This document shows, one piece after another, positions 11,658 to 40,709 of a stretch of 64,000 nucleotides of DNA. Origin of the DNA: Candidatus Aerophobetes bacterium Ae_b3a (GTDB lineage: Bacteria; Aerophobota; Aerophobia; Aerophobales; AE-B3A); the NCBI GenBank assembly GCA_005223095.1, contig NJBQ01000002.1, positions 1,462-65,461 on the forward strand, in the 5' to 3' direction. A model generated the notes under the pieces. The model saw only the letters and a program-made list of their open reading frames with translations, searched no databases and had not been told where the DNA came from. Each line of letters starts with the position of its first letter. Within the stretch, counting starts at the first letter, position 1. The translations under genes were made by a program, and so were the position numbers.

Positions 11658-12545
11658 GTGCGTACTTTTGGAAATAGTGAAAAAAAAGAAATTCCTGTTA
11701 TTGATAGTGCATGGCGGACTATCATTGAAAACCCAAATCTTGGTAAATTTGATGGCGGCGAGCAACAGGAACCTGTAGACTTTGCCATCTGGCAAGCTGC
11801 CAATGGAATGTGGCAACTTTGGTCTTGCATTCGCAAGGCTAATTGTGGAGGGATGACCAGACTTTTTTACCGCTGGGAAAGTGCGAATCTTATGAAAGAA
11901 ATGTGGGAGTCTACAGGTATTGTAATGCAGGCAGATCCGAAGTTTGGTGAAAGAGAGGGGGGTCTTCAGGCACCATATGTGCTAAGAATCGGCAATCTCT
12001 ACTATATGTTCTATGGAGGTTGGGATGCTATCTGTCTGGCTACCAGTAAGGATGGAATTACATTTAAGCGTAGACTTAATGCCTCCGGTCAAAGCACTAT
12101 ATTTAGTAACGGAAAGGATTCCAACCCACGGGATCCTATGGTGATCCAGGTGGACCACTACTGGTATTGTTATTATACTAGTAATGAAGGCCGTGATTAT
12201 TGCCGTACTTCAGAGGATATGGCTGAATGGAGTAAATCTAGGGTTGTTGCTTTTGCTGGGCAAGCAGGAAGAGTAAAAAGCTCAGCCGAGTGCCCTTTTA
12301 TTGTAACCCGTGGCCCATATTACTATCTTTTCCGTACACAGCACTACAGGGACAATCCTCAAACCAGTGTCTATCGTTCAGAAGATCCAATGGATTTCGG
12401 TATTAATAACGATAAGTACTTCGTATGTAGTCTTCCTGTGGCTGCTCCTGAAATCGTCTTATATGAGGAACAGTATTACATCGCAGCTCTACTACCTAAT
12501 CTAAAAGGGATAAGGATTGCCGAACTTAAGTGGGTGCAAGAATAG
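11658..12545 (+). CDS. Five-bladed beta-propeller glycoside-hydrolase-like protein (GH43/GH32-clan-like)
   Basis: 295 aa, GTG start. Repeated blade motifs GGLQAPYVLRIGNLYYMFYGG, PRDPMVIQVDHYWYCYY and SAECPFIVTRGPYYYLFRT, with candidate catalytic Asp/Glu. Family not resolved by eye. Confidence 0.5.
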   Translation: MRTFGNSEKKEIPVIDSAWRTIIENPNLGKFDGGEQQEPVDFAIWQAANGMWQLWSCIRKANCGGMTRLFYRWESANLMKEMWESTGIVMQADPKFGEREGGLQAPYVLRIGNLYYMFYGGWDAICLATSKDGITFKRRLNASGQSTIFSNGKDSNPRDPMVIQVDHYWYCYYTSNEGRDYCRTSEDMAEWSKSRVVAFAGQAGRVKSSAECPFIVTRGPYYYLFRTQHYRDNPQTSVYRSEDPMDFGINNDKYFVCSLPVAAPEIVLYEEQYYIAALLPNLKGIRIAELKWVQE

Positions 12546-12674
12546 CGATTCAAAACTCATCTTGCGGTATTGTCATTTAGAGTTCTCTGTGAGTATATCT
12601 ATACTTTAAAAAGACTATAAGCTAAGAATGAGGGGGTTCAGGAACCTCCGCTTCTTACTGAAAGGTTAGGTAAT

Positions 12675-13466
12675 ATGAAAATTGGTATTCTTGACAGCGT
12701 TCTAGGGGGAAAGGAAAAGCCTATAATATGGGAAGCTCTCTACCAAATTGCAGGAGAGCTGGGTTTTCAGGGTCTAGAACTGGGTGTTAAGGCTAGCTAC
12801 GAGCAAACGCAATTATGGAAAAAGGGCGGCCGACAGCGGCTACTGAAAGTATCCCGGAAAAATGGAGTACTCACTTCTTCCATCTGTCTTCATTCTTACT
12901 GGCTCTACAGTTTCGCCAGTCCTGATAAGAAAATACGGATACGCGCTCAGACAATAGCAAAAGAGGCTGCTCTGGCAGCCGCAGAGATGCAAGCCAAGAA
13001 TATACTAGTACCGCTGACTTGTCCCGAAGGTGTTAAGGACACAGTTGCCCGCAAGCGCTGGAGAGAAGGAATAGCTTCCTGTGCTGTCGCTGCCGAGTCT
13101 CAGGGTGTCTTCTTCTGTCTGGAAAATGTTGGTCAGTCCTTTGCCAGGCAACCACAAGATATCATTGATATCGTTGATGCCATTAATTCACCTGCCGTGA
13201 AGGTATATTATGATCCTGGTAACGCCGTAATAGGTGGACTGGACCCCCTGAAAGGAATCTCTCTGCTGGGCAGACGTATTAGGCAGATTCATGTAAAGGA
13301 ACATCAAGGCACCTACCTTGGTGATGGAATTGTGCCTTGGCCCAAAATTATCGAGCATCTTCAAGAGATAGATTATGATGGCTGGTTGGTCCTTGAAACT
13401 AGTTGCACAGAGGATCCAAGGCGTGCCGCTAAAAAGAATCTTGAAAGACTGAAAAAAATCATTTAG
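12675..13466 (+). CDS. Sugar phosphate isomerase/epimerase (xylose isomerase-like TIM barrel)
   Basis: 263 aa. FQGLELGV.., CLENV, YDPGNA and HVKE are metal-ligand-type motifs of the AP endonuclease 2/TIM family. Confidence 0.8.
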   Translation: MKIGILDSVLGGKEKPIIWEALYQIAGELGFQGLELGVKASYEQTQLWKKGGRQRLLKVSRKNGVLTSSICLHSYWLYSFASPDKKIRIRAQTIAKEAALAAAEMQAKNILVPLTCPEGVKDTVARKRWREGIASCAVAAESQGVFFCLENVGQSFARQPQDIIDIVDAINSPAVKVYYDPGNAVIGGLDPLKGISLLGRRIRQIHVKEHQGTYLGDGIVPWPKIIEHLQEIDYDGWLVLETSCTEDPRRAAKKNLERLKKII

Positions 13467-13680
13467 TATGAGAAGGAGAAAGGACCCGAGGTCTTTGGTC
13501 TTATGGTAGAGAACCCCAATAAAGTCATCAGATACGGCATTTCTTTTTCCGGGTCAAGTATTGAAGAAAAGAAATAAGGCTTCACCGATTCCTTCGGGTA
13601 TTTCTTAATACGCAATCGAATATAATGAAAAATTGTACGACTGTGGGCAAGAAGATCTTATTAAGAAAAAGGGGGAAATT

Positions 13681-14727
13681 ATGAATCGTAAAATACGGAT
13701 AGGCATTATGGGAATGACCCATGGTCATTTATGGAGACATCTTGGAGATCTCAAAGAGTCGGAGGTAGGAGAGCTGGTAGCGGCAGCTGATCCCAACCCG
13801 CCTCTGATTGAAAGGATTCAGTCAGAATATAACTGTTCGCAAACCTTCGAATCTTACAGGGATATGTTGGAAAAGGTGAAACTGGATGCAGTGTATGTGT
13901 TTGCTGATAATGCCACCTCGGTTAACCTGGTTGAAATGGCTGTCAAAAAGGGTCTTCATGTCATGGTGGAGAAACCAATGGCAGCTACTCTAGCCGGTGC
14001 AGACAGAATGTTGGCTGCAGCCAGAAAGAATAATGTCCTCCTGATGATTAATTGGCCCAATATGTGGAATGCCAAATTACAACAAGCCTTCGTGTTAACG
14101 CGATCTGGAGAAATTGGTCGTATTACCGGCATAAAATATCGAGCTGCCCACGCTGGTCCCAAGGAGATTGGCTGTTCTCCTTATTTTTACAGATGGTTGT
14201 TTGACAAGAAGCTAAATGGCGGCGGTGCTTTGATCGATTACTGCTGCTATGGCGCTGCGATAGCTCGCTATTTACTAGGACAGCCTAGCCGAATAGTAGG
14301 AGTAACTGGAAGGCTTGATAAAGACTACATTACTGTAGAGGACAATGCCGTCATCATTATGCAGTGGTCCAGAGCAATTAGTATTACCGAAGCATCCTGG
14401 ACAGAGATAGGAGAATTGACCTCTTATGCCACGATTATTTACGGTACTAAGGGGACTATTGTGTCTGAGTTTGGTGAAAAGGGAGAGCTGCGGCTAGCCA
14501 CTCAGCAGCATAGAAAGGGTATCCTGATAGATGTTCCTGAGCCCAAGGAGGAACTTAAGAATGCTACTAACTACTTTTCAAACTGCATCAATAAAAATCT
14601 TTCAATTGAAGGATTATGCAGTCCTGAGGTCGGGCGGGATGCTCAGGAAATTCTTGAAGCAGGCTTGATTTCTGCGGCAAAAGAGACCGCTATTTCTTTA
14701 CCCTTACCAATTTTCCCCGGTGTGTGA
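13681..14727 (+). CDS. Gfo/Idh/MocA family oxidoreductase
   Basis: Start moved to ATG 13681 (GGGGGA RBS 5 nt upstream; MNRKIRIGIMGMTHGH Rossmann start). EKP motif (VMVEKPMA). Confidence 0.85.
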   Translation: MNRKIRIGIMGMTHGHLWRHLGDLKESEVGELVAAADPNPPLIERIQSEYNCSQTFESYRDMLEKVKLDAVYVFADNATSVNLVEMAVKKGLHVMVEKPMAATLAGADRMLAAARKNNVLLMINWPNMWNAKLQQAFVLTRSGEIGRITGIKYRAAHAGPKEIGCSPYFYRWLFDKKLNGGGALIDYCCYGAAIARYLLGQPSRIVGVTGRLDKDYITVEDNAVIIMQWSRAISITEASWTEIGELTSYATIIYGTKGTIVSEFGEKGELRLATQQHRKGILIDVPEPKEELKNATNYFSNCINKNLSIEGLCSPEVGRDAQEILEAGLISAAKETAISLPLPIFPGV

Positions 14728-14739
14728 AGGAGATTATAT

Positions 14740-15987
14740 ATGGTTCGCATTGGAATTGTAGGTTGTGGTCGAATCCTCAATGCTCACCTATTAGCATATA
14801 AAGCCTTACGAGAAGTTGGCGTTGATAATTTTCGGATAACTGCCCTTACAGCGAGGAAGGAAAACGATGCACTCATGTTTCTTCAACGCGGTAAGGGACC
14901 TCCACCACGACAATCAACGGTTCCACCAGAGTTGGGAGATCCTCTAGGAGCCCCTCATACCTACCTGAGCGACTTTCAGGATGATGTGAAGGTAGATATT
15001 TATACCAATTATCAAGAAATGATAGAAAAGGGACATGTAGATGCGGTGAACGATTTCACCACACTGGCGATGCACCATCAGGTAGGAGAGACAGCTCTGG
15101 AAGCGAGAAAGCATCTTCTTACCCAAAAGCCTCTGGCTATCTCGGTGAAAGCAGGTAAACGGCTTGTGGAAATGGCAAAATCTAGTGGTCTTATTCTAGG
15201 CATTGTTGAGGTTGTACGGTATGACCTTTACGCTCGGGCTCTTGCTTGGGCAGTAAGCAGGGGTTTAATTGGTAATCCTCAACTAGTCGTGATTGGATCA
15301 CTGGGAGGCTTATGGTCACCTGATCGGATTGTAGCTAACACTCCGTGGAGACACTGTAAGATTCAAGCCGGTGGCGGCGGTTCAGTGGACATTGGAGTAC
15401 ATCAATTCCATCTGCTTCGCTATGTTATTGGTGAGATTTCCTGGATTAGTGCAGTAACGTCAACTCTAGAGCTACAAAGGCATTTAAAAGATGAGAATGG
15501 AAATGTGATTGGAAGTATTTCGCCCGATGTGGATGATACTTATCTTGCGGTAGCAAGCTTTGAAAATAAAGCTATCGCCCAGCTGCTTTGGTCGTGGGCC
15601 TGCCGTGGGAAACCCTTAGAAATACCGGGCGCGCCAGTTATATATGGAAGTAAAGGATGTATCAAAGGAAAGAAACTGATTTATGATAATAACCGAGGAG
15701 AAGATCTTTTAAAGCGTTTTGAAAAAGAGATGAGTCCCGAGGAGCGAGAACAACTCTTTCCCTTTGGCTTATCGGATCCTTTTGCACTCCAACAACTCGA
15801 ATGGTTAAGGGCTATTGAGGAAGGTAGGGAGGTAGAAACCAGCGGATATGAAGGACTGAAAGATCTGGCCTGTTCCTTCGCCATGCTGGAATCTTCCAAT
15901 TTGGGCAGACGGGTAACCCCAAAAGAAGTCTTGACGGGTAGAGTATCATCTTATCAGGCTGAGATCGATTCCTATTATGGGCTATAA
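14740..15987 (+). CDS. Gfo/Idh/MocA family oxidoreductase (long form)
   Basis: 415 aa. MVRIGIVGCGRI Rossmann start, TQKPLA motif, GGAG RBS. Confidence 0.85.
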   Translation: MVRIGIVGCGRILNAHLLAYKALREVGVDNFRITALTARKENDALMFLQRGKGPPPRQSTVPPELGDPLGAPHTYLSDFQDDVKVDIYTNYQEMIEKGHVDAVNDFTTLAMHHQVGETALEARKHLLTQKPLAISVKAGKRLVEMAKSSGLILGIVEVVRYDLYARALAWAVSRGLIGNPQLVVIGSLGGLWSPDRIVANTPWRHCKIQAGGGGSVDIGVHQFHLLRYVIGEISWISAVTSTLELQRHLKDENGNVIGSISPDVDDTYLAVASFENKAIAQLLWSWACRGKPLEIPGAPVIYGSKGCIKGKKLIYDNNRGEDLLKRFEKEMSPEEREQLFPFGLSDPFALQQLEWLRAIEEGREVETSGYEGLKDLACSFAMLESSNLGRRVTPKEVLTGRVSSYQAEIDSYYGL

Positions 15988-15989
15988 AA

Positions 15990-16012
15990 GTCAGGGGGCA
16001 AAGCCCCCTGAC
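15990..16012 (+). terminator. Perfect 10-bp GC hairpin between oxidoreductase and GH2 genes (no U-tract)
   Basis: GTCAGGGGGC-AAA-GCCCCCTGAC immediately after the stop at 15987, followed by TATCTTGT rather than a T-run, so it may be an attenuator/stabiliser rather than a full terminator. Confidence 0.3.
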
Positions 16013-16037
16013 TATCTTGTAAAAAGAAAGGATAATC

Positions 16038-18254
16038 ATGAAACTCAACTTAACTGGAAGCTGGAAACTACGGGGTGAATCTCAAAAGGGAGAAGGGATT
16101 TTTCTAGGATATATAAAATCTAATCTCGATGATGCAGATTGGATTGTAATTCCAAAACTTATGCATCTACAAACAATTCTCTGCGAAGATAATCCTTACT
16201 TTGGAGAAAAGGTCAGAGCTATTAATGATAAGGCCTGGTGGTATCGTAAGAGATTTTATGTTCCTAGCAATTACAGGGGAAAAACGTTGCGCCTTCGGTT
16301 CGAAGGAGCTGACTATTATGCATCGGTGTATCTGAATGGAAATTTTTTGGGACACCACATAGGCCATTTTAATCCTTTTGAATTCGATATTACCGACCAG
16401 GTGTTTTATGAAAGTGAGAATGTCCTGGTTGTTCGAGTACGAGCACCCTGGGATGAACCCAATATCTATGCGGAGCGTCGGACATCCGACACAGTAATTC
16501 GCCAGATGGTCAAGGGACTCTATGAACATGCAGATGAACTTATTCCCCCAGTGGTTAATCCTATCGGTTTATGGCAACCGGTAAGCCTGGTAGCGTCAGG
16601 ACCCGTAGTATGCGAGCGAGTAGCAGTCTTCTCAAGAATTCTGGACGAAAAAGAAGTCGAGATTAATCTGGAATTCACACTTCACAACTATACTTCCTCT
16701 CCTCAGAGAGTGGACTGCCAGCTAACTATGGAAGGAGAGACTTTTGAAGAAATACTAATCCAGGAGCGATTCTCCACTCTAGCTTCTTCAGGGCAGTCCT
16801 CCTTAAAACAAACCTATCGGTTAAAGGATCCTAGGCTGTGGTGGCCCTGGGACCAGGGAACGCCTCACCTGCACCGACTTCTTCTGAAAACCAGCACTGA
16901 TAGTGGTGCAACTGAAACCTTTACTAAGGTCATAGGCATTCGGGAAGTAAAATTGATTCGTACGCCAGAAGAGACTAGCTTCATCATAAATGGCCGCAAA
17001 GTATTCATTAGAGGTACCCTATATATACCTGATATATACTTATCCCGGATGAATCTTGAAAAATATAAAGAAGATATGGAACGGGTAAAGGATTCCAACA
17101 GTAACCTGATTCGACTCCATGTTCATGTTGATCGTCCGGAGCTCTATGATTTGTGTGACAGGATGGGAATCATGGTCTATCAGGATTTTGAGCTTAACTG
17201 GGCCCATCCTGCTACTTTAGAGTGGGAAGAACAAGCAGTGTCTCTTTTTAAAGAAATGATTAATATGCTTCAGGCTTACCCTTCTATCATCTGTTGGTGC
17301 TGTCATAATGAACCTGTTGATCCCCCATGCAACTATCACGAACATCCTGATCCCCGCTTATATAAAGAAGCTTTGAAACTGGATCCCAGTCGGCCGGTCT
17401 TCCAAGGCTCGGGTAGAGCGGAAGATTATCAACATAGTGGCGATTCCCACAACTATCTGGGCTCTCTTTCTGAAGGTGAATACACCGACATTCTGAAAGC
17501 AAAAGAGAGATTGAATACTGAATACGGCGTGGGGGCTCCCCCTGATAGACAGGTTCTGGAACAATATCCAATTCTATATAACCGCCTTAAGAATGCACTT
17601 CCAAGGATTGAAGAATTGCAGGAGTACCAGTGTCAGCTTCTTAAATTTTACACCGAATATTATCGGTATAATAAATTCAATCCCTGCAGTGGATGTGTAC
17701 AAGTTCAATTCATTGATTGTTGGATTGGAACATTTTTTGGAGTAATAGACTACCATCGTAATAAAAAGAAGGCTTATCAAGTTTTGAAGGATGCCTTTCA
17801 ACCACTTCTGATTTGTTTTGAGTACGGCATCAATGAACCCAAAGCAATCTGGGCTGTCAATGATCTACCTAAGAAATTTCTAAATGTTACTGCGGAGTGG
17901 AAGGTTACTGATACATCGGGGAAGACGGAAGTCGCCGATGGAAAACAACTTGATATCCCCATAAACACAAGGAAGAAGGTATGCGATTTGACTTGGAAAG
18001 TAAAGGATGAGGAGCGCTATACTCTCGAACTATCTCTGAAGGATAGTTTGGGGAAAACCATTGCTGCCAATCGTTATGTTGACCCTTTTCATCCCATGAG
18101 ACGTCCAAAAGGATATCCTGAGGGATTTGACTTCTACCTTGGCATCAAAACTTTTGAACCTGAAGTACGGAATACCAAACCTTCAGACTTGTCACTGGCA
18201 TTACTGGAAAGAGTAAAGCAGGTAAATAATAGTAGCGACTTAAATGCAAGATAG
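16038..18254 (+). CDS. Glycoside hydrolase family 2 (beta-mannosidase/beta-glucosaminidase-like)
   Basis: 738 aa. N-terminal sugar-binding jelly roll (LTGSWKLRGE.., RLRFEGADYYASVYLNG). TIM-barrel motifs CWCCHNEP and NTEYG. Confidence 0.8.
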   Translation: MKLNLTGSWKLRGESQKGEGIFLGYIKSNLDDADWIVIPKLMHLQTILCEDNPYFGEKVRAINDKAWWYRKRFYVPSNYRGKTLRLRFEGADYYASVYLNGNFLGHHIGHFNPFEFDITDQVFYESENVLVVRVRAPWDEPNIYAERRTSDTVIRQMVKGLYEHADELIPPVVNPIGLWQPVSLVASGPVVCERVAVFSRILDEKEVEINLEFTLHNYTSSPQRVDCQLTMEGETFEEILIQERFSTLASSGQSSLKQTYRLKDPRLWWPWDQGTPHLHRLLLKTSTDSGATETFTKVIGIREVKLIRTPEETSFIINGRKVFIRGTLYIPDIYLSRMNLEKYKEDMERVKDSNSNLIRLHVHVDRPELYDLCDRMGIMVYQDFELNWAHPATLEWEEQAVSLFKEMINMLQAYPSIICWCCHNEPVDPPCNYHEHPDPRLYKEALKLDPSRPVFQGSGRAEDYQHSGDSHNYLGSLSEGEYTDILKAKERLNTEYGVGAPPDRQVLEQYPILYNRLKNALPRIEELQEYQCQLLKFYTEYYRYNKFNPCSGCVQVQFIDCWIGTFFGVIDYHRNKKKAYQVLKDAFQPLLICFEYGINEPKAIWAVNDLPKKFLNVTAEWKVTDTSGKTEVADGKQLDIPINTRKKVCDLTWKVKDEERYTLELSLKDSLGKTIAANRYVDPFHPMRRPKGYPEGFDFYLGIKTFEPEVRNTKPSDLSLALLERVKQVNNSSDLNAR

Positions 18255-21881: not shown

Positions 21882-21909
21882 AGTAACTCCTTATATAGAT
21901 AAACGCTGA

Positions 21910-22680: not shown

Positions 22681-22792
22681 CTTTCGAACTCCTCCATGTG
22701 TCTCATTTCTATTATCACAGACTCCCCTTATATGATGGGAGGTCTATTCTCTATCATCTGTGGCAGAATTAATATCTTAGACAAGCACGAGC

Positions 22793-23830: not shown

Positions 23831-23965
23831 TGTTTGTACCCATCCCTTTATCTATTGATTCTTTAAGGCCATAACAAATTTTAACTTGAGCTATATGCCA
23901 CATTGAAGCCAGTATATTTATGAGTAACTTCTTTGACTTTCTTCATTTATCGGCCACGGTATTCC

Positions 23966-26611: not shown

Positions 26612-26633
26612 AGAGTTTTACATCCTTAATTCC

Positions 26634-28465: not shown

Positions 28466-28586
28466 AACTTATCCTCCTATAGAGTAATTAATTTTAGGTA
28501 AGAAAAATAAAGGAAGCGCTATAAGCATATCTGCGAAGGTGAAGCCATGAAACAGATAGAATTACTGAGCATCGTATTGCTCTAAC

Positions 28587-30302: not shown

Positions 30303-30379
30303 TGTTTATTCCTTTTCTTCAGATTGAGGGTGCTTGGGGAGAACATGAAGTGAGTTCTCCCCAATCTACCCAAAAAAAT

Positions 30380-31934: not shown

Positions 31935-31982
31935 AAACTTCTTTCTCTTGGCTATAATGATACTGCACACTTTCTTAAGAAA
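31925..31982 (+). repeat. 57-bp promoter-region repeat, copy b (perfect 30-nt core 31944-31973)
   Basis: ATTCTGTCAAAAACTTCTTTCTCTTGGCTATAATGATACTGCACACTTTCTTAAGAA; compare 6933-6988. Confidence 0.8.
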
Positions 31983-32007
31983 AAACAACAGAAGAGTTTA
32001 TGTTTCC

Positions 32008-32202
32008 TCATTTCCATAGTATGAATCGTTCAAGTTCTTCTAACCACAAGATAGTTGAAGGAATATCTACCGGGACTAAAAGCAACCTCTTCATTTCTTG
32101 GTCCAGTTTTAAAAGTGAAATAGAACATCCGGCCATGTCGAGAGAAGTTACATATTCACCAATATAGGTTTTGAATATCTTAATATTCTGTTTTTTAGGT
32201 AG
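32008..32202 (-). pseudogene. dhaK: C-terminal relic of dihydroxyacetone kinase subunit DhaK
   Basis: Not in ORF track. Minus frame reads LPKKQNIKIFKTYIGEYVTSLDMAGCSISLLKLDQEMKRLLLVPVDIPSTILWLEELERFILWK*. It matches the E. coli DhaK C-terminus (VGNYCTSLDM.GFSITLLKVDDETLALWDAPVHTPAL) as recalled. Preceded by in-frame stops. Confidence 0.65.
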
Positions 32203-32270
32203 CTAGCCACTTTTCTAAAAACAATGTATAGCTCCATTATGGGAGATTTCAGTCCGATTCCAACCTTCTG

Positions 32271-33593
32271 TTATCCAAGTTTCATTTTGGCCATGTAGGC
32301 ACAGCCCTTCAGAGAGCAGTTATCCTTTGCTACAATATTAAATCCTGAGAATAACCTTCTTCTATAGCTCATTAGAGTCTCGTTTACTCCTCCCCCGGTA
32401 AGATATATAGTCCTATCCAGATCTATGAGTTTAGCCATTTTTTTGAGAGTTTTTTTCATACGCCCCACTGTTCCCTCCATCAAAGCAAAGACACAATCAT
32501 CCCTGCTGGAACTCAGAGTAAGACCGGAAAAAGAAGCCTTTTTCTGTCTTAGGCTGGTTCTGTCTCCGGCAAGATAAGGATTGAAATTAACAGAAGAGCT
32601 CATCTTCTTTTCCATAAGCTTTCTCAGATATGAACTGTAAAACTCCTCTTTACTCATTTCTCTGCAAAACTGGGACCGAAACCACTCCAGGGCAAATCCA
32701 CCAGTTGTGATATCAAACATAAGCCACTTATTGAGAAGAGGATGCGTACGCAGGTAATATTTTTCATGCGGAATGGGTCGATCCATACATATGGTTAAAA
32801 TTTCTGAACTCCCCGAAATGTTGAGAATCTGGCCGCCCTTAAGTACTCCTGCCCCAAGCGCCGCACTTGAGGTATCGTTTGAGCCCATTATTACAGGTGT
32901 CCCGCATCTCATGCCTGTGCTCCTGGCGACTTCTCGGGTAACGTTACCCACAATCTCGGTTGAGGGAATAACCGGGGGAAGTTTTTCAAGAGGAATCTCC
33001 AGCTCTCGGGCAATCTCTTCACTCCAGTCTGAGTAGGCTACGGTATTGTAAAGACCTGTAAGTGAGGCATTAGTGGGGTCAATACTCCACCTACCGGTGA
33101 GTCTTTTCACAAAAAAGGTATTCATATGGCCAAACTTAAAGGCTTTTTCAAAGATTTGTTTTTCCTTTTCTTTAAGCCACAGAATACTGGTTACAGAGAT
33201 ACCTCCCGGATAGGGTATGTTGCCGGCTATGTGAAGAAACTTTTCCTTGCCCACCTTGGCAAGAGCCTCTTTAGCCTGTTTAACACTTCTTCTATCCCAG
33301 TGGATAATAGCAGGGTAAAGAGCGTTGCCATCCTCATCCAAGGCAATCAAAGCAGGACTGAACACACATGGTACAACCGTTTCTACCTGGCTTAAATAAT
33401 CTCTCAGTCCATCCATAACTTTCAGAAAGGCTTTCCATATCTCTTCTGGCTCTATCTGAACACACATCCCAAACGAATGGTAAGAGTATTCAGCCTGGCG
33501 CACAACAAACAACTGATAACTCTTGTTAAATAATCCAGCTTTCAGGGAAGATGTTCCAATATCTATCGCTAATATATAGGATTTTTTGTTCAA
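32271..33593 (-). CDS. FGGY-family carbohydrate kinase (short form)
   Basis: 440 aa. ILAIDIGTSSLKAGLF phosphate-1 motif. GSNDTSSAALG. C-terminal GGG motif TGGGVN. Confidence 0.85.
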   Translation of the reverse strand: MNKKSYILAIDIGTSSLKAGLFNKSYQLFVVRQAEYSYHSFGMCVQIEPEEIWKAFLKVMDGLRDYLSQVETVVPCVFSPALIALDEDGNALYPAIIHWDRRSVKQAKEALAKVGKEKFLHIAGNIPYPGGISVTSILWLKEKEKQIFEKAFKFGHMNTFFVKRLTGRWSIDPTNASLTGLYNTVAYSDWSEEIARELEIPLEKLPPVIPSTEIVGNVTREVARSTGMRCGTPVIMGSNDTSSAALGAGVLKGGQILNISGSSEILTICMDRPIPHEKYYLRTHPLLNKWLMFDITTGGFALEWFRSQFCREMSKEEFYSSYLRKLMEKKMSSSVNFNPYLAGDRTSLRQKKASFSGLTLSSSRDDCVFALMEGTVGRMKKTLKKMAKLIDLDRTIYLTGGGVNETLMSYRRRLFSGFNIVAKDNCSLKGCAYMAKMKLG

Positions 33594-34628
33594 TTAAGAC
33601 GCTCTTTTGTTCTGAATCTTCTTAATAAGTCGACCTTCTTTGATGAAGCCAGCTTCTTCTAGTTCCTTTCGGTTAAAGATATTCTTCGGCAGTCTGCCGG
33701 AGAAAAGATCGAGAACTGCCTGTGCAGCTCCCCTGGCCAAGCGGGAGACACACTCTTTTGTTAGTGATGCTGAGTGAGGCGAGAGAATAACGTTTTCCAT
33801 CTTTAAGAGAGGGTTATTCTTAAAAGGGGGCTCTTGCCTAAATACGTCCAGGGCAGCACCAGCAATTTTACCTTCTTTGAGGGCTTTGATTAAAGCCTCC
33901 TCATCTACCACTGTTCCCCGGGAGGTATTGATAAAATAAGCAGATTCTTTCATCCTGCTTAATATGTCCCAGCTAATTAGGTTGCGCGTTTGAGCAGTAC
34001 CTGCCACATGCACGGATACAAAATCAGCTTCCTGAAAAACCTGGCCAATATCACTGCAAAATTGGATACCATCCTTCGTTTCGCTCCCCCTAGAGAGAAA
34101 AGGATCATATCCCAGGACCCGCATATTAAAAGCCCCCTGACAGATCCTGGCAACTCGGGAACCTATATTACCTACTCCAATGAGCCCCAGAACCTTACCC
34201 TTTAAATCTGCGGCTTCGTACCTATTCCGACTGTTCCAATTTCCTTGTCGGGTCCATTTGTCCATAAATGGTAGGCGTTTGGCAAGGATGAGAATGAAAG
34301 CAACGGTGTGTTCAGCCACAGATAGACTATTGACTCCCGGAAGGTTACATACCAGGATTCCCCCTTTGGTAGCTGCTCGAACATCCACATTGTCTACGCC
34401 GGCTCCTGTTCGTGAGATAATTTGAAGGATTTTCGCCTGGGCAATCACCCCTTTGCTCACCCGGGAAGTAGTGCGCAGTATAACCCCATGAACATCTCTG
34501 CATAATTTACGCATTGTTGCCTCAGAGGTGTCCGGAGCAATGATTATTTCAGCTTTTCCTTTGAGCAATTTCATCCCAGTTTCATGAATAGGCTGGGATA
34601 AAAGCACTTTTTTCATACAAGACCTCAT
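33594..34628 (-). CDS. D-isomer-specific 2-hydroxyacid dehydrogenase (phosphoglycerate dehydrogenase-like)
   Basis: 344 aa. GLIGVGNIGSRVA NAD motif and the SRG..VD / ALDVF catalytic region. Alternative start at 34616. Confidence 0.85.
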   Translation of the reverse strand: MRSCMKKVLLSQPIHETGMKLLKGKAEIIIAPDTSEATMRKLCRDVHGVILRTTSRVSKGVIAQAKILQIISRTGAGVDNVDVRAATKGGILVCNLPGVNSLSVAEHTVAFILILAKRLPFMDKWTRQGNWNSRNRYEAADLKGKVLGLIGVGNIGSRVARICQGAFNMRVLGYDPFLSRGSETKDGIQFCSDIGQVFQEADFVSVHVAGTAQTRNLISWDILSRMKESAYFINTSRGTVVDEEALIKALKEGKIAGAALDVFRQEPPFKNNPLLKMENVILSPHSASLTKECVSRLARGAAQAVLDLFSGRLPKNIFNRKELEEAGFIKEGRLIKKIQNKRAS

Positions 34629-34634
34629 TTGGCT

Positions 34635-35408
34635 CTATTTCTCCTTTCCAATGACTTGACGAAGAAGAGAAACAGTGATCTGACCTTCAAAAGTGAGGTT
34701 TTTCCCTCCAGCCAGAATCTCTGTCTTGTCTCTGCCTACGTCACCCAGGGAGGTAATAACCAGGTCGGCCCCGCTGAAATCCTCACTCTGAGTATAGCTA
34801 TTTACAGTAATAATACATCTCATGCCAGCACCTTTTGCTGCCAGAAGCCCGTTTCGATTATCTTCTATGACAACACAATTAATTGAAGAAACAGCCAACT
34901 TTTCTTTGGCTAGATTATATATCTCCGGGTCAGGCTTCTTTGCCCTGACAATATCTCCAGCCAGAATCACATCAAACCAACCATAACCTTTCTCTCCAAA
35001 GAGGGTGCGAAGGAGTGTATTAACCGCCCGTTCATTTGCCGTGGAGCAGACAGCTAATTTGAGATTGGCATCATGGCATTCCCTGACAAGACGGGCTACA
35101 CCGGGACGTAGTCCCATCTGTCCTTCCCCGATTATCTCCATAAATATCTCTGTCTTTCGTTTATGAACTTCTTTAATGAGTGTATCAACATCCTCGATAT
35201 TTTTATCCAGACCTTCCCGAATAAGATAATGGCGCATTCTCTCCTTACCCCCTCCCACTTTTAGAAGTTCACCGTAGGTCTTGACACCCCATTCAATGTT
35301 AAGATTAAACTCTTTGAAAGCCCTGTTAAAGGCAACTCGGTGTCCATCCCTCTCGGTATCAGCAATTACTCCATCCTGGTCAAAAATAACCGCTTCAAGT
35401 TCTGCCAT
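34635..35408 (-). CDS. HAD-superfamily phosphatase (CbbY/GPH-like)
   Basis: 257 aa. Motif I FDQDGVIADTE; motif IV-like IEDNRNGLLAAKGAGM. Confidence 0.8.
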   Translation of the reverse strand: MAELEAVIFDQDGVIADTERDGHRVAFNRAFKEFNLNIEWGVKTYGELLKVGGGKERMRHYLIREGLDKNIEDVDTLIKEVHKRKTEIFMEIIGEGQMGLRPGVARLVRECHDANLKLAVCSTANERAVNTLLRTLFGEKGYGWFDVILAGDIVRAKKPDPEIYNLAKEKLAVSSINCVVIEDNRNGLLAAKGAGMRCIITVNSYTQSEDFSGADLVITSLGDVGRDKTEILAGGKNLTFEGQITVSLLRQVIGKEK

Positions 35409-35426: not shown

Positions 35427-36281
35427 CTATGCTTTCCCTTCGGATCCGAACTTCTCTATAAAGGATTCAATAACTTCTTGAACTTTATCTCGCATATAAG
35501 CAAGAATCTTTACTGGTTCATAAACTTGTGGACTTTTCCGGAAGTATTCTGAAAGTGAGTCCTTGAAAGCATGCTTTATTTGGGTGGAAATATTTATTTT
35601 TGCCCCTCCTAAACTTATACACTTTTTGAAGACCTCATCCGAAAGACCGGTTCCTCCGTGGATGGCAATGGCAGCTCTTATTTCTCCGGCTATTCTCCCA
35701 AGGAGGTCAAAGGCTATCTTTGGCTCACCTTTGTAGATACCATGAGCTGTGCCTATGGCCGGAGCAAAAACATCCACTCCAGTTTGACTAACATATTCAA
35801 GAGCCTGCTCGGGATTGGCTAGATGTGATTCCTGTTCCTTGACATGAATATCATCTTCTACCCCTACTATTGCTCCCAGTTCTCCCTCAACAGTTACATC
35901 ATGTGGATGAGCCATCTCCACTACTTCTTTGGTCATCCTTATGTTTTCTTCGAATGGAAAACTAGAAGCATCTATCATTACTGATGAGTAGCCTGCCTTC
36001 ACGCAGGAGTGGATAAGACTCAGATCTTTACAGTGGTCAAGATGAAGGGCAATGGGGACATTTGCTTTCTTGGCAAGAGCCTTCACTGTTGCCACTAAGA
36101 AGGCACATCCGTAGAGTTTTGCCGTCTTAACCGAGGTCTGTATTATTGCTGGCGCCCTTTTTGCCTCTGCTGCCCGAACAACGGCCGCCGCAGTCATCGC
36201 GTCCACAATGTTGAATGCACCAACCGCATATTTTTCGTGACTAGCCTTAGAAAGCATATCACGCATATTAACATAACTCAT
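35427..36281 (-). CDS. Class II ketose-bisphosphate aldolase (FbaA/GatY/IolJ family)
   Basis: 284 aa. AVGAFNI, LHLDHC, IDAS and HGGTG motifs. Confidence 0.85.
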   Translation of the reverse strand: MSYVNMRDMLSKASHEKYAVGAFNIVDAMTAAAVVRAAEAKRAPAIIQTSVKTAKLYGCAFLVATVKALAKKANVPIALHLDHCKDLSLIHSCVKAGYSSVMIDASSFPFEENIRMTKEVVEMAHPHDVTVEGELGAIVGVEDDIHVKEQESHLANPEQALEYVSQTGVDVFAPAIGTAHGIYKGEPKIAFDLLGRIAGEIRAAIAIHGGTGLSDEVFKKCISLGGAKINISTQIKHAFKDSLSEYFRKSPQVYEPVKILAYMRDKVQEVIESFIEKFGSEGKA

Positions 36282-37875
36282 CTGTTTTCTCCTTTGTCGT
36301 ATGAAAACTTATCTCTTGCCTTTGGCTTTGTGCTATGGCATCGAAGCTGGGCTTCAGGGTCTTATAGAGACCGTGGTAGACACCGTAGAGTTTCTCATAA
36401 ACTTCCTTGTTTCGAGGGTCGGGAATCGTCTCAGTCTCTATCTTAAGAACCTTTACTGCTTCATTAACACTTTTCCAGATACCCACACCGATCCCCGCTA
36501 CTAAAGCTGCCCCATAGGCACCGCCTTCCCTACTTCCGCTCACAGTTATCACCGGACATTGAAACACATCAGCCTGTATTTGTCGCCAGAGAGAGCTCAG
36601 TGACCCACCCCCAGAGGTCCTGATCTCCTTGACCGAACTCTCCATAGTGTTGATTAATTCGAATACATCCCTAAGGCTGAAGACTACCCCTTCCAGGATG
36701 GCTCTGGTAATTTCCGGACGTCCGTGCTGTAAACTCAAGCCAATGAACCCACCGCGTGCTGCTGGATCACTATACGGACAGCGCTCACCGATCAGATAAG
36801 GCAGAAATATCAGCCCTCGCGATCCTGCAGGTGCAGCAGACGCAATCTCTTCCATGATTTGATAAACCTCCTGGCCCATCTGCCTGGCCTTTTCCTTTTC
36901 TACCTCGCACAACGCGTCTCGGAACCACCTGTAGGAGCCACCAGCGGCCAATGTTACGCCCATAACATGCCATGTGCCGGGACTGTTATTGCAGAATATC
37001 TGCAGCCGTCCGTCAGCATTGGGATGAAACCTGTCCAATCCCATAGCTACGATCCCTGCCGTACCGATGGTGATTCCAAGTATGCCAGGTTTTACCAAAC
37101 CCATTCCTGTTGTCTGTATCACAGCATCTCCTCCCCCTCCAACTACTGGAAGGCCTACCGGCAGACCGGTTACTTCCGATGCCCTTTTCGTAATTCGGCC
37201 GGTGATCTCGGGAGATTCGAAGCACCGGGGCAGGCGTTCAATGGGTATATTAAGCAAGGTGAGAAGCTGATCGCACCACCGGCGTTGCCGGACGTCAAAC
37301 AGACCGGTTCCTGAGGCGTCTGAGACCTCCGTGGCAAATTCCCCTGTTAGGACATACCGAATGTAATCCTTGGGATTGAGAAAGAGGCGTGTCCTCTTAT
37401 AGAGTTTGGGTTCCTGCTCCCGCATCCATAGAATCTTTCCCCCGGTGTAGCCCGGGAGCATCTGGTTATTGGTCAACTCCAGGAGCCGGGGAATGCCACC
37501 AACAATTTCGTGAATACGTTGGCACTGGACCATACTTCTCTGATCATTCCACAAGATAGCTGGTCGCAGAACTTGGCAATCCTTATCTAAGGCCACCAGA
37601 CCATGCATCTGGCCGCTCAACCCAAGACATTTCACAGCATTACTGGAGATGCCGGTCTTCCGCAACAATCGCCATACACTGACCTGAACAGCTTTCCACC
37701 AGTCTGCAGGATCTTGTTCTGTCCATCCCGGCCGCGGAGAGAGAAGTGGGTATTCCTGTAATGAGTAACCGATGACCTTACCCTCGCCATCGATAAGAAT
37801 CGACTTACATCCCGAGGTTCCTATATCAATTCCTATGAGGTATTCACCAGCCATAAGTTTTTCCTCGCTTCTCAT
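36268..37875 (-). CDS. FGGY-family carbohydrate kinase (xylulokinase-like, long form)
   Basis: 535 aa. LIGIDIGTSGCKSILID. GGGDA. TSGGGSLS. The start overlaps the ALDH stop (TAATG). Confidence 0.85.
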   Translation of the reverse strand: MRSEEKLMAGEYLIGIDIGTSGCKSILIDGEGKVIGYSLQEYPLLSPRPGWTEQDPADWWKAVQVSVWRLLRKTGISSNAVKCLGLSGQMHGLVALDKDCQVLRPAILWNDQRSMVQCQRIHEIVGGIPRLLELTNNQMLPGYTGGKILWMREQEPKLYKRTRLFLNPKDYIRYVLTGEFATEVSDASGTGLFDVRQRRWCDQLLTLLNIPIERLPRCFESPEITGRITKRASEVTGLPVGLPVVGGGGDAVIQTTGMGLVKPGILGITIGTAGIVAMGLDRFHPNADGRLQIFCNNSPGTWHVMGVTLAAGGSYRWFRDALCEVEKEKARQMGQEVYQIMEEIASAAPAGSRGLIFLPYLIGERCPYSDPAARGGFIGLSLQHGRPEITRAILEGVVFSLRDVFELINTMESSVKEIRTSGGGSLSSLWRQIQADVFQCPVITVSGSREGGAYGAALVAGIGVGIWKSVNEAVKVLKIETETIPDPRNKEVYEKLYGVYHGLYKTLKPSFDAIAQSQRQEISFHTTKEKTDELC

Positions 37876-39332
37876 TAGCGGCCGCTGTGTAGAAAGCGCA
37901 GGCGCACATGTTTGACCTTTAGATACTCGTATAGTCCTTCCGGGCCATGTTCGTGTCCCAGGCCGCTTTCCTTCCAGCCTCCGTAAGGAGCGTTTATAAC
38001 ACCTGCGTCCACATTATTAATGGCCACATTACCAGATTGAAGTTCCCGGGAAAGACGGTCAGCCTCATCAAGGTTGTTAGTAAAGGCATAGGAGGCTAAA
38101 CCATATGAGGTATCGTTCGCTAGAGCAATGGCTTCATCCAAGTCCTCAAATGACATCACTCCCACCACAGGACCGAATGTTTCCTCCCGCATCACCAGCA
38201 TATGCTGGTTCACATTGGTAAGAATGGTTGGTTCAAAGAAGAATCCTTTGCGAAACTCCTCACCCTCTGGTCGCTTCCCACCGTAGGCTATCTTGGCTCC
38301 TTTTTCCAAAGCATCCGTAATATGACGCTGGGCCTTTTTTACTCCTCTCCCATCCACCATGGGACCCAAATCGCAAGGCACTTTAGTCAAACCATTCCCA
38401 ATCACTAATTCAGTTGTCTCCTTGACGAACCGTTCAAGAAAATCGTGGTAGATTTCTCGGTCGACGTAGATGCGATTGATAGCGATGCATATCTGGCCCA
38501 TATTCCGGAATGAACGCCGCACCGCTCCCTGTACGACTGCCTCCAAATCACAATTTCGGCAGACTATCAACGGGCAATGCCCCCCCAATTCCAAAGAAAC
38601 TTTCTTCAGGAAAGAGGCACAATCGGCCAGAACTATTCTCCCCACCTCCGTCGATCCAGTGAAAGCCACCTTCTTGACAATAGGACTGGCAATAAGTTGA
38701 CGCCCCACCACTGTTCCTGATCCTGTGACAGCATTCACCACCCCACGCGGTACACCGGCATCAACCAAACACTGGAGAAACAATAAAGGGGACAGAGGCG
38801 TAAGCGAAGGGGGCTTGGCTATCATCGTACATCCGGCAGCCAGCGCTCCACCCACCTTCCAGGCAAGTAATTCAACAGGGTAGTTCCACGGGGAGATTGC
38901 TGCTGCAGGACCAACCGGCTGATAGATTACCCGACTCTCCGTATCGGCCTCAACATTGGCCACAATGCGACCATAGACACGTTCCCCTTCTTCTGCGTAG
39001 TACCGTAAAATAAGGGCGGCCTTTTTTACCTCGCCTTGGGCTTCAAGCAGGGGTTTGCCTTGCTCTTCGGTCATAATACGACCGATTTCCTCATAACGTT
39101 GCATCACCAGCTCGCTAGCAGCTCGTAAGTAATTACCTCGTTCAGCCGGCGATAATTTTGCCCATTCAGGAAAAGCAACATCTGCAGATTTAATAGCACT
39201 GGCCACGTCTTCTTCTCTCGCCCGTGGCACCTGGGCAAACACCTCCTCGGTAGCAGGGTTAATAACGTTGATGAAGCCGCCATCAGCTGCCTCAACCCAT
39301 TCTCCGTCAATCAGCATAAGTTGATATTTCAT
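37875..39332 (-). CDS. NAD(P)-dependent aldehyde dehydrogenase
   Basis: 485 aa. ELGGHCP (catalytic Glu region), FRNMGQICIA (catalytic Cys) and EETFGPV. Confidence 0.9.
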   Translation of the reverse strand: MKYQLMLIDGEWVEAADGGFINVINPATEEVFAQVPRAREEDVASAIKSADVAFPEWAKLSPAERGNYLRAASELVMQRYEEIGRIMTEEQGKPLLEAQGEVKKAALILRYYAEEGERVYGRIVANVEADTESRVIYQPVGPAAAISPWNYPVELLAWKVGGALAAGCTMIAKPPSLTPLSPLLFLQCLVDAGVPRGVVNAVTGSGTVVGRQLIASPIVKKVAFTGSTEVGRIVLADCASFLKKVSLELGGHCPLIVCRNCDLEAVVQGAVRRSFRNMGQICIAINRIYVDREIYHDFLERFVKETTELVIGNGLTKVPCDLGPMVDGRGVKKAQRHITDALEKGAKIAYGGKRPEGEEFRKGFFFEPTILTNVNQHMLVMREETFGPVVGVMSFEDLDEAIALANDTSYGLASYAFTNNLDEADRLSRELQSGNVAINNVDAGVINAPYGGWKESGLGHEHGPEGLYEYLKVKHVRLRFLHSGR

Positions 39333-39724
39333 GTTTCACTTCCATCATTGGTCAGGTGGCAGGTCACCCAGACGACTGTTAGAGGAAGATTTCCCTTCTG
39401 ATAGGTCGTATGGTACTCGCCAGGAGATACATAGAAGGCATCTCCAGCTTTTATCGGAAACTCCTCGTTTCCAATTTTCATCAGGCCTTCTCCAGAAACT
39501 ACGAAATAAACTTCTTCTATGTCCTCATGTACATGACCGGTTGTCTTCCCTGTGGGGTAAATGGTTGTATGTCCCATTTTCAGATTTCGTGAGGAAGAAT
39601 TTTCAGGGTCTATAAGGAAATACGTATCCCTCAGAACCTCATTTTTACGGCTCTTGACATTGAAACGTAAAGAACGCTTATCTTCATCTGGTTTTAAGTC
39701 CTGGACATTAATAAGGTATCTCAT
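39329..39724 (-). CDS. Cupin-domain protein
   Basis: 131 aa. GHVHEDIEEVYFVVSGEG..GDAFYVSPGEYH two-motif cupin signature. 4-nt overlap with ALDH. Confidence 0.8.
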   Translation of the reverse strand: MRYLINVQDLKPDEDKRSLRFNVKSRKNEVLRDTYFLIDPENSSSRNLKMGHTTIYPTGKTTGHVHEDIEEVYFVVSGEGLMKIGNEEFPIKAGDAFYVSPGEYHTTYQKGNLPLTVVWVTCHLTNDGSET

Positions 39725-39758
39725 GTTTTACCTCCGCTTGAATATCTTTTTTCTGATA

Positions 39759-40709
39759 TTAATTGGGAGTTTTATTCAGCTCGCCACAAAATGGTTCGGA
39801 AATGAAGTGATTTCTGAATTGGGGATACTCTTCCATAAATTTTTCTAAAGCAAGACGAATGCACTCTCGCTCAGTTGAGCTTAGTGGCAGCAAAGGAAGC
39901 CGAGGATCACCAGCAGAAAATCCGGTGAAATCCATAGCTACTTTCACACCAGCCACTCCATGCCTGCCTGATACTTCTCGGTTAATTTGCAGAATTGCAT
40001 ACTGGAGCTTCCTCGCCTCTTCCATATCTCCCTGCTGAAATATCTCATATAGACGACAACAGGCCTGAGGCAAAAAATTAGCTGCTGATAATACTCCCCC
40101 CACAGCTCCCATCACTAGGGAGGGAAGAAAGAAATTAGCTGATCCTGCTAGAATTGAAAGCTTTTTCCTGTCTATAATGGACAAAAAGATGTTGGGTCCT
40201 GTTGGTGCACTATCCTTCATGCCTATGATATTGGGATGCTCACTTAACCTCAGCACAGCCTTAACTGAAAGTGCTACTCCTGCAGCAAATCCCGGAGCAT
40301 TGTACAATACTACTGGCAGAGGAGAGTTATCTGCTGCGGCTCGAAAGAAGCAAATCAATGCGTCATCGGTCATTGCTTTCTTGAAGTAATGGGGCGTCAT
40401 GATGCTGGCAACATCAGCTCCTTCATCAGCAGCGAGCTTGGTAAGAGCAATGGTTCCTGGAAGAGACTCATGACTGCAACCAGCCATCAACAGTTGATTA
40501 CTCTCTTTTCTCCTCAAAACCGTACGCAGTACCCTTTTCTTCTCCTCCTCATTCAACATGCAAGCCTCACCGTTACTTCCCAGGGCAAAATAGCCTCGCA
40601 GTTTCGTTTTAGAATATATTTCCATATTATGCTCCAACTTTCCAATATCTATCTCACTTTTGGTAAAGGGAGTACAAATAGGAGCCCATACCCCTGATAG
40701 GTTCTGCAT
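39759..40709 (-). CDS. DapA/DHDPS-family class I aldolase (2-keto-3-deoxy-sugar-acid aldolase-like)
   Basis: 316 aa. GYFALGSNGE, YNAPG and IIGMKDS (Schiff-base Lys region). Confidence 0.8.
   Translation of the reverse strand: MQNLSGVWAPICTPFTKSEIDIGKLEHNMEIYSKTKLRGYFALGSNGEACMLNEEEKKRVLRTVLRRKESNQLLMAGCSHESLPGTIALTKLAADEGADVASIMTPHYFKKAMTDDALICFFRAAADNSPLPVVLYNAPGFAAGVALSVKAVLRLSEHPNIIGMKDSAPTGPNIFLSIIDRKKLSILAGSANFFLPSLVMGAVGGVLSAANFLPQACCRLYEIFQQGDMEEARKLQYAILQINREVSGRHGVAGVKVAMDFTGFSAGDPRLPLLPLSSTERECIRLALEKFMEEYPQFRNHFISEPFCGELNKTPN

Follow-up and report, generated by a model that had tools for sequence, protein, structure and literature searches.

A probable composite carbohydrate-utilisation island in Candidatus Aerophobetes, with a four-gene cassette built around a LarA homolog

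Positions 11658-40709 of a 64,000-nucleotide stretch from Candidatus Aerophobetes bacterium Ae_b3a (GenBank assembly GCA_005223095.1, contig NJBQ01000002.1, positions 1,462 to 65,461 of the forward strand; the whole stretch is called the window here) carry a dense run of genes for sugar conversion, which raises the question of whether they encode one pathway or several. The first-pass annotation of this 29-kb locus read it as possibly a single inositol-like route that would lead from a glycosylated cyclitol or sugar alcohol to trioses without IolC and IolD. The locus is modular in structure, and it is probably a composite carbohydrate-utilisation island of at least five gene sets that were inherited and moved independently, rather than one pathway. 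Islands of this general kind are known. The region contains 24 intact open reading frames (ORFs), five on the plus strand (11658-18254) and 19 on the minus strand (from 40709 down to 18380). All 24 have the coordinates given in the annotation, and Pfam confirms every family named there. The gene junctions that it listed are also present in the sequence: TAATG at 37875, ATGA at 39329-39332 and 27419-27422, and a TAA directly abutting a TTG at 33593/33594. A further overlap, of 14 nucleotides, is found between the xylulokinase and aldolase genes (36268-36281).

A single inositol- or cyclitol-glycoside pathway would use the locus as follows. The glycosidases would free the cyclitol, and the Gfo/Idh/MocA (Gfo), TIM-barrel and IolB-like enzymes would open and rearrange its ring. 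FGGY kinases would replace IolC, the class II aldolase would take the place of IolJ and the aldehyde dehydrogenase (ALDH) that of IolA. The family-level parts list fits this scheme, IolC and IolD are absent genome-wide, and the genes follow one another closely on one strand, some of them overlapping. The curated NCBIfam equivalog models, applied with their own cut-offs, speak against it. The two Gfo proteins of the locus score 70 and 74 bits with the IolG model (TIGR04380), the cut-off of which is 355 bits. They rank 18th and 19th by this score among the 27 Gfo genes of the genome, that is, among the least IolG-like, and the best score in the genome, on contig C112, is 210 bits. The best locus score for IolE (TIGR04379) is 52 bits (cut-off 290), and that for IolB (TIGR04378) is 86.5 bits (cut-off 205). 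Two locus proteins reach 135 and 85 bits with IolM (NF041097; cut-off 450), and two reach 139 and 113 bits with IolO (NF041099; cut-off 300), which no protein of the genome exceeds. IolN (NF041098) has no match in the window. The scores are thus 2.4- to 5.6-fold under the Iol cut-offs. The only equivalog cut-off passed by any locus protein is that of XylB (TIGR01312), by the long FGGY kinase (510 against 380 bits). For the class II aldolase, the candidate for the IolJ role, the generic cbbA subfamily model is the only one whose cut-off is exceeded (272 against 216 bits). The candidate for the IolA role matches succinate-semialdehyde dehydrogenase (SSADH) best (496 against 646 bits), with no IolA model among its top 25. 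Judged by these profile scores, the Iol resemblance of the locus proteins appears to be at the superfamily level only.

The annotation had found no IolC or IolD in the locus, and a genome-wide search extends this result. The best scores in the whole 87%-complete genome are 171 bits for IolC (TIGR04382; cut-off 300) and 245 bits for IolD (TIGR04377; cut-off 715). Genuine inositol genes are found elsewhere, on the 5.1-kb contig C60 (L074:1832-5106). It carries a Thermotoga-type iolM (503 bits, cut-off 450), a second Tdh/IolM-like gene for a medium-chain dehydrogenase/reductase (MDR), and then the single iolN of the genome (276.8 bits, cut-off 245), which is cut by the contig end. The Thermotoga inositol route, made up of IolG, IolM, IolN and IolO, requires neither IolC nor IolD according to PMC5931981 and PMC12632266, which cite Rodionova 2013. 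The genes on C60 therefore explain the absence of IolC and IolD without invoking the locus, and the lineage carries Thermotoga-type, not Bacillus-type, inositol genes. At the start of another contig, C127, lies an incomplete IolO-like sequence (91 bits over 97 positions).

The gene content and distribution of the locus bear on the same point. No ring-opening enzyme is encoded in it. Its IolB-like gene travels with genes for a LarA homolog, an MDR dehydrogenase and a TIM barrel, once beside a GntP acid permease, and the modules of the locus are found separately in other genomes. One cyclitol-glycoside pathway spanning the whole locus is thus very improbable, and the route drawn in the annotation has to be given up; its statement that the genes match no textbook pathway is borne out. 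The case is a caution against inferring a pathway from a parts list. With dozens of Gfo and TIM-barrel paralogs in a genome, an 'inositol toolkit' arises by juxtaposition alone, and Gfo and TIM-barrel matches do lie no more than about 1.5 kb apart on at least five other contigs of this genome.

The host is an uncultured bacterium with a small genome, from a sparsely sampled lineage, and is rich in sugar-conversion genes. Its genome is a metagenome-assembled genome (MAG) of 141 contigs and 2.37 Mb, 87% complete and with 3.7% contamination. The repertoire is unusually dense: besides the 27 Gfo genes there are 18 xylose-isomerase-like TIM barrels and about 25 CUT1 permease paralogs. Two other regions hold paralogs of the toolkit. 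C112:8000-26000 encodes a permease, a Gfo protein, a TIM barrel, a GH2-like protein, an M55 protein, a fucose-isomerase-like protein, DJ-1, an IolB-like protein (27%), an FGGY kinase and an FAD oxidase. C63:5000-17000 has two Gfo genes, two MDR dehydrogenase genes and an IolB-like gene (32%).

Most of the units into which the locus resolves are uncharacterised. The best lead among them is the LarA cassette, which consists of four genes:

23966-25285, minus strand, LarA homolog (Lar_N, 199.5 bits)
22793-23830, minus strand, zinc-dependent MDR dehydrogenase, sorbitol/threonine-dehydrogenase-like
21910-22680, minus strand, KduI/IolB-like cupin
21054-21881, minus strand, TIM barrel B, FrlC/IolO-like, of the AP_endonuc_2 family

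The borders of the cassette are sharp. L089, a metagenome contig of a close relative, aligns with the window at 91% DNA identity, and the alignment is confined to 21058-25288, the limits of which fall no more than 4 bp from the ends of the four-gene run. Its flanks are unrelated to the window: a DruA-family gene lies on the upstream side, and genes for PCC, a cyclase, AbiEi and Fic lie on the downstream side. The four genes occur in the same order, 50-72% identical, in three other loci. In a MAG labelled Cytophagia (L011) they are preceded by a gene for a GntP acid permease, and in MAGs of Chloroflexia (L012) and Caldilineae (L090) they lie next to other CUT1 systems and an isochorismatase-like gene. 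The LarA ortholog is missing from the same-genus genomes G001 and G002, and one relative from the order has it at 70%. Homologs of the KduI/IolB-like protein number about 840.

The LarA homolog has both the Lar_N and the LarA_C domain of the superfamily, with GTHRP at residue 106 (the catalytic His) and GGGSK at residue 180 (the cofactor-tethering Lys). The capacity for nickel-pincer synthesis is indicated by LarC, which is encoded on contig C67 (231 bits, cut-off 90). The homolog is probably functional, because the catalytic motifs are present and the genome has LarC. The malate racemase Mar2 and LarA are its best matches in the Protein Data Bank (PDB), each with about 1e-48. Far more distant, at 6e-15, is 4nar, a 'putative uronate isomerase', which we take to be a Thermotoga GntE-type protein. 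The protein falls below the cut-offs of all seven NCBIfam LarAH groups, the best being LarAH6 malate racemase (302 against 500 bits).

The mechanisms of all the modules are ones that we infer throughout. The LarA cassette would convert a 2-hydroxy acid or 2-hydroxy sugar acid, beginning with a nickel-pincer inversion at C2. Oxidation by the NAD-dependent dehydrogenase would then give a keto acid, on which the TIM barrel would catalyse epimerisation or isomerisation beside the keto group and the cupin an aldose-ketose isomerisation. Our best guess from the protein families is that the cassette serves as a funnel for the stereo-inversion and isomerisation of hydroxy or sugar acids. It is proposed tentatively, with somewhat less than an even chance of being correct, that it is an undescribed, self-contained and horizontally mobile four-enzyme hydroxy-/sugar-acid pathway around a nickel-pincer epimerase of an uncharacterised group; the distal five-enzyme set described below may be a second one.

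Next to the cassette lies one further gene:

25484-26335, minus strand, M55 (DppA-like) protein (Peptidase_M55, 266 bits; PDB 1hi9, 5e-33)

The M55 protein scores 152 bits with the DppA equivalog model, the cut-off of which is 430. As a partner of LarA it was considered and rejected, since it is absent beside the cassette in L011, L012, L089 and L090. A 40%-identical paralog adjoins the GH2-like gene of the C112 sugar locus, so that M55 genes recur in sugar loci of this organism.

At the far end of the locus eight genes form a distal group:

39759-40709, minus strand, aldolase of the dihydrodipicolinate synthase (DHDPS) family, HOGA-like (PDB human HOGA1, 3.7e-61)
39329-39724, minus strand, cupin, in an accessory trio with the ALDH and the xylulokinase
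37875-39332, minus strand, ALDH, closest to SSADH
36268-37875, minus strand, xylulokinase-type FGGY kinase (XylB equivalog)
35427-36281, minus strand, class II ketose-bisphosphate aldolase, in a conserved pair with the HAD phosphatase (cbbA subfamily only)
34635-35408, minus strand, HAD phosphatase, in a conserved pair with the class II aldolase
33594-34628, minus strand, PGDH/McyI-like 2-hydroxyacid dehydrogenase (PDB McyI 4e-72, PGDH 1e-63)
32271-33593, minus strand, short FGGY kinase, below the XylB equivalog cut-off at 193 bits (PDB XylB, GlpK and GntK, about 1e-26)

Xylulose, glycerol and gluconate kinases are equally close PDB relatives of the short kinase. The DHDPS-family protein stays below the dapA equivalog cut-off (150 against 206 bits), and its match to human HOGA1 compares with 2.5e-35 for the best DHDPS structure.

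The composition of this group was traced through relatives. The dehydrogenase and short kinase genes are adjacent, 79-94% identical, in L044, L055 and G002, and adjacent at 64-72% identity in L047, L048, G024, G028 and G029, several order relatives being among these; in L047 and L048 the pair stands between housekeeping genes. In the same survey the dehydrogenase gene of L046 is represented by its end alone, and in G030 the pair is cut by the contig end. The DHDPS-family aldolase gene adjoins the pair in G002, L044, L055, G024 and L088. The five-gene block from the cupin to the HAD gene is absent between the DHDPS-family gene and the dehydrogenase gene in the same-genus genome G002 (L065) and in L044 and L055. 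This block was at first taken for a pure insertion, a reading dropped in view of L086, L087 and L088, which show the class II aldolase and the HAD phosphatase to be constant partners of the DHDPS-family aldolase, dehydrogenase and kinase. In these three loci, which belong to three other lineages, the aldolase gene is followed by the HAD gene and then by the DHDPS-family gene, with aldolase and HAD 66-81% identical to those of the window. A short FGGY kinase gene is present as well. Gene orders differ, the genes lie partly among housekeeping genes, and in L087 the set adjoins def, fmt and rsmB. The PGDH-like dehydrogenase has a 50-54% identical counterpart in L086 and L088, and the neighbouring dehydrogenase of L087 is only 28% identical. 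Among the three, only L086 has the cupin, ALDH and XylB genes with the set, and these three genes alone look like an accessory part. The five-gene block of L086 is 73-84% identical to that of the window, against 48-54% for the trio of DHDPS-family aldolase, dehydrogenase and kinase, a contrast consistent with separate histories of block and trio.

Two side observations concern the same genes. Directly upstream of the HOGA-like aldolase gene of L044 lies a gene of the transaldolase/fructose-6-phosphate aldolase (FSA) family (L044:3105-4310; PF00923, 116 bits), and similar ORFs are found in L055 and L057. This gene occurs in relatives without the five-gene block, and the window has instead a GroEL gene upstream, on the other strand. 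The contig G010:C26 (L067), from a genome assigned by its label to another genus of the family, encodes the aldolase, HAD phosphatase, dehydrogenase and short kinase with 94-99.6% protein identity to the window, which reflects either recent transfer or mis-binning.

The distal set may be read as a lower pathway leading to pyruvate, a phosphorylated C3 compound and dihydroxyacetone phosphate (DHAP). The HOGA-like aldolase would split a 2-oxo-4-hydroxy acid into pyruvate and an aldehyde or glyoxylate, and the PGDH-like dehydrogenase and the short FGGY kinase would process a small hydroxy acid or polyol. The class II aldolase and the HAD phosphatase would act on a ketose phosphate. The cupin, ALDH and xylulokinase would be an add-on that feeds in xylulose 5-phosphate. 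Sulfoquinovose (sulfo-EMP2), tetritol/tetronate and D-lyxose routes were considered for this set and dropped.

The two acid-oriented modules might be coupled, so that the LarA cassette and the distal set together form a new route from a sugar acid to trioses. The cassette would then make a 5-keto-aldonate or keto-uronate, a distal FGGY kinase would phosphorylate it, and the class II aldolase would cleave the product in the manner of IolJ to DHAP and a C3 acid-aldehyde, which the ALDH, or the dehydrogenase with the kinase, would finish. Such chemistry is feasible by analogy with the established reactions of IolJ and IolA, and both modules are kept together in this lineage, in the window and in the metagenome contig L042. 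The Chloroflexota loci that carry the cassette both have an FGGY kinase gene, accompanied by a class II aldolase gene in L012 and by genes for a cupin and a DHDPS-family protein in L090. These neighbours are, however, only 30-34% identical to the window versions and are not their orthologs. The closest copy of the cassette, in L089, has no distal-set gene within 10 kb, and the distal set of L086-L088 occurs without the cassette. In the window itself the M55 gene and the ycj-like block described below intervene between the two modules. The LarA homolog, moreover, resembles malate and lactate racemases more closely than it does 4nar, the 'putative uronate isomerase'. Coupling of the two modules is accordingly judged unlikely.

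The block that separates these modules is the part of the locus that can be compared with a characterised operon. It consists of five genes:

30380-31687, minus strand, binding protein (ycjN position)
29421-30302, minus strand, CUT1 permease (ycjO position)
28587-29420, minus strand, CUT1 permease (ycjP position)
27419-28465, minus strand, YcjQ-like MDR dehydrogenase (MDR2)
26634-27422, minus strand, YcjR-like TIM-barrel epimerase (TIM barrel C)

The block 26634-31687 is colinear with ycjN-O-P-Q-R of Escherichia coli K-12 (NC_000913.3). Over their full lengths MDR2 is 37% identical to YcjQ (3e-79) and TIM barrel C 27% identical to YcjR (2e-40), values that indicate homology, not orthology. Among the best PDB matches of TIM barrel C are YcjR itself (6wn6, a 3-keto-D-glucoside 4-epimerase; 8e-35) and Thermotoga TM0416 (4e-31). 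The genes for MDR2 and TIM barrel C recur as a pair, 68-77% identical, in other surroundings in the order relatives G016 and G025. The CUT1 importer of the locus is made up of the binding protein and the two permeases, and family assignment of the 24 locus genes yields no ATPase gene to go with it. Promoter and terminator scans gave results that were overall not above those for shuffled sequence. The sole noteworthy promoter-like site, TTGACA-16-TAGAAT at 31934-31907, lies upstream of the binding-protein gene.

No intact gene for a Gfo-type YcjS follows the epimerase gene in the window, only a relic of 18 codons (MSKIKMGVVGLGITRWTI*), readable on the minus strand of 26342-26628. The relic is part of one of two segments that lack a counterpart in L042 by blastn:

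26342-26628, no strand assigned, 287-bp segment missing from L042 (95% identical), containing the Gfo-type relic plus a 54-bp repeat of 8994-9047
31949-32234, no strand assigned, 286-bp intergenic segment with a 33-bp repeat of 6956-6988, no counterpart in L042

Short repeat-bearing pieces appear to have been inserted between operons. The idea that the relic is a ycjS that decayed in place was dropped, because the segment 26342-26628 is missing from L042.

YcjQ, YcjR and YcjS interconvert D-gulosides and D-glucosides via 3-keto intermediates, according to PMC11543891, which cites Mabanglo 2020. Since this chemistry is known, the most likely role of the ycj-like block is uptake of a glycoside, followed by oxidation of one ring hydroxyl and epimerisation at the adjacent carbon. 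In this scheme the CUT1 transporter would bring in the glycoside and the YcjQ-like zinc dehydrogenase would oxidise a hydroxyl of the ring sugar (C3 in YcjQ). The YcjR-like TIM barrel would epimerise the carbon beside the keto group of the 3-keto-glycoside. A Gfo reductase, possibly the Gfo pair described below or another Gfo paralog, would reduce the product back. An unusual glycoside would thereby become a common one, which GH116, GH2 or the propeller protein could hydrolyse.

These glycosidases and the Gfo pair are found among the remaining six genes, the five of the plus strand and the last of the minus strand:

11658-12545, plus strand, five-bladed beta-propeller protein, glycosidase-like (Pfam GH43, 26 bits, below the 32.2 cut-off; AlphaFold/Foldseek)
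12675-13466, plus strand, xylose-isomerase-like TIM barrel A (AP_endonuc_2, 135 bits)
13633-14727, plus strand, Gfo/Idh/MocA protein Gfo1, first gene of a separately conserved two-gene unit
14740-15987, plus strand, Gfo/Idh/MocA protein Gfo2, 12 nucleotides after Gfo1
16038-18254, plus strand, GH2 glycosidase with GH2 N-terminal, middle and TIM-barrel domains and Mannosidase_ig
18380-20824, minus strand, GH116 (beta-glucosidase-2-type) glycosidase (Glyco_hydr_116N 216 bits, DUF608 175 bits)

The Gfo pair is another unit conserved on its own. The two genes are adjacent, 62-68% identical, in an Anaerolineae MAG (L083), where GH4 and DJ-1 genes follow, and in a 6.1-Mb genome (L085), where the gene of a major facilitator superfamily (MFS) transporter precedes them. 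In L100 a Gfo gene, recognised by Pfam only, precedes a Gfo2 homolog, and homologs of Gfo2 number more than 1400. The best PDB match is an aldose-aldose oxidoreductase for Gfo1 and an unnamed oxidoreductase, 1zh8, for Gfo2, both at about 1e-18. GFOR, sugar 3-ketoreductase, 1,5-anhydrofructose reductase (AFR) and DgpA are further relatives, and inositol dehydrogenases come further down the list for Gfo1 and are missing from that of Gfo2. The 'putative dehydrogenase' 6a3f, which we take to be a levoglucosan dehydrogenase, is also on the list; its similarity, like that of DgpA, is remote (E-values 1e-11 to 1e-14). DJ-1/PfpI genes recur in several of the loci compared: beside the Gfo pair with GH4, beside the LarA cassette and in the C112 locus (L083, L100, L090, C112). 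They may protect against reactive keto-sugar intermediates.

For TIM barrel A the best NCBIfam model is L-ribulose-5-phosphate 3-epimerase (78 against 200 bits), with IolE at 52 against 290 bits, and the best PDB match is D-tagatose 3-epimerase (5.5e-11). The GH2 protein is far under every NCBIfam GH2 equivalog cut-off. The label 'beta-propeller GH-like' given to the first ORF is upheld for its fold by predicted structure: a profile-based AlphaFold model has a pLDDT of 94, and its top Foldseek hits are the five-bladed GH43, GH62, GH130 and GH32 enzymes, with TM values of about 0.6 and 11-18% identity. At the level of sequence the label finds less backing, with the Pfam GH43 score below its cut-off and no match among PDB sequences. 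The family has 787 representatives in a library of 1.84 billion proteins. It is captured by no CAZy-type model, and most homologs have an N-terminal extension of 25-35 residues, which is missing in the window copy.

The modules might also owe part of their juxtaposition to assembly or binning of the MAG. The 141 contigs and the 3.7% contamination would allow this, and so would the G010 contig, which bears an other-genus label and yet carries four distal genes at 94-99.6% protein identity. Independent metagenome contigs repeat the order at 91-97% identity: L042 spans 40857-23061 of the window, and the distal part is represented in both L041 and L043. The modules therefore do lie together in this population, and their arrangement is no product of assembly. 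The GC content is smooth over the module junctions as well, and an artefact of this kind is extremely improbable.

The same conservation of order is one of several points that weigh against independent gene sets. The 19 genes from 40709 to 18380 share one strand with short gaps, and L042, about 95% identical, preserves their order from the DHDPS-family gene as far as the first LarA-cassette dehydrogenase. Shared strand and conserved order would allow co-expression and a metabolic hand-over between modules. The FGGY kinase, aldolase, cupin and DHDPS-family neighbours of the Chloroflexota cassettes point in the same direction. The relatives compared are incomplete MAGs, and a concatenated protein query of 2948 residues, overwhelmed by paralogs of the 2-hydroxyacid dehydrogenase, scored only nine candidates in each genome, so that absences in relatives are weak evidence. 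On balance the locus still appears to be a composite. It resolves into independently conserved units, which goes most of the way to the outcome that the annotation had named as refuting its reading; that outcome also called for characterised operons, and of the units only the ycj-like block resembles one.

Three conserved, uncharacterised gene sets are delimited in this way: the LarA cassette, the Gfo1-Gfo2 pair and the five-gene set of the two aldolases, dehydrogenase, short kinase and HAD phosphatase. Their clear boundaries make them tractable targets for enzymology. The LarA cassette, if the proposal holds, would extend nickel-pincer chemistry into a multi-step sugar-acid or hydroxy-acid pathway.

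Comparison with known systems places the modules at different distances from them. With the Bacillus-type iol operon (IolG, E, D, B, C, J and A) the locus shares family-level look-alikes of IolG, IolE/I, IolB, IolJ and an ALDH; IolC and IolD are lacking, and no locus protein reaches an Iol equivalog cut-off. With the inositol pathway of Thermotoga maritima it has the Gfo, zinc-MDR and TIM-barrel superfamilies in common. Its proteins are far under the IolM and IolO cut-offs and it has no IolN, the real IolM and IolN being those of C60. Systems for oxidative 3-keto glycoside processing (levoglucosan LgdA/B, PMC7676230; DgpA; the gut-commensal pathway, bioRxiv 10.1101/2024.03.25.586180) likewise combine Gfo oxidoreductases with xylose-isomerase-like TIM barrels and glycosidases, and DgpA and 6a3f are among the Gfo matches; at such remote similarity no lyase or hydratase can be assigned among the locus proteins.

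Racemases and epimerases of the LarA superfamily, such as the malate racemase Mar2 and lactate racemase (PMC7583248, PMC11770544), have Lar_N, the catalytic motifs and LarC in common with the locus or its genome. The homolog of the locus differs in standing outside the curated LarAH groups and in its fixed partners, the MDR dehydrogenase, the KduI/IolB-like cupin and the TIM barrel, a partnership not found described in these two papers. In the HOGA1/GRHPR and GarL-GarR-GarK lower pathways an aldolase, a reductase and a glycerate kinase act together, and the distal set similarly couples a HOGA-like aldolase with a D-2-hydroxyacid dehydrogenase and a kinase. Its dehydrogenase is PGDH/McyI-like, not GRHPR-like, its kinase belongs to FGGY and not to a known glycerate kinase family, and it has two more constant members, the class II aldolase and the HAD phosphatase.

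Among characterised systems, the one closest to any part of the locus is the ycjMNOPQRSTUV cluster of E. coli, in which YcjQ is a D-guloside 3-dehydrogenase, YcjR a 3-keto-glycoside 4-epimerase and YcjS a D-glucoside 3-dehydrogenase. The window is without an intact YcjS, a YcjM or YcjT phosphorylase and an ATPase, and its HAD phosphatase, which belongs to another module, shares just 26% identity with YcjU. Its ycj-like block nonetheless has the identical order of binding protein, two permeases, zinc-MDR dehydrogenase and TIM-barrel epimerase.

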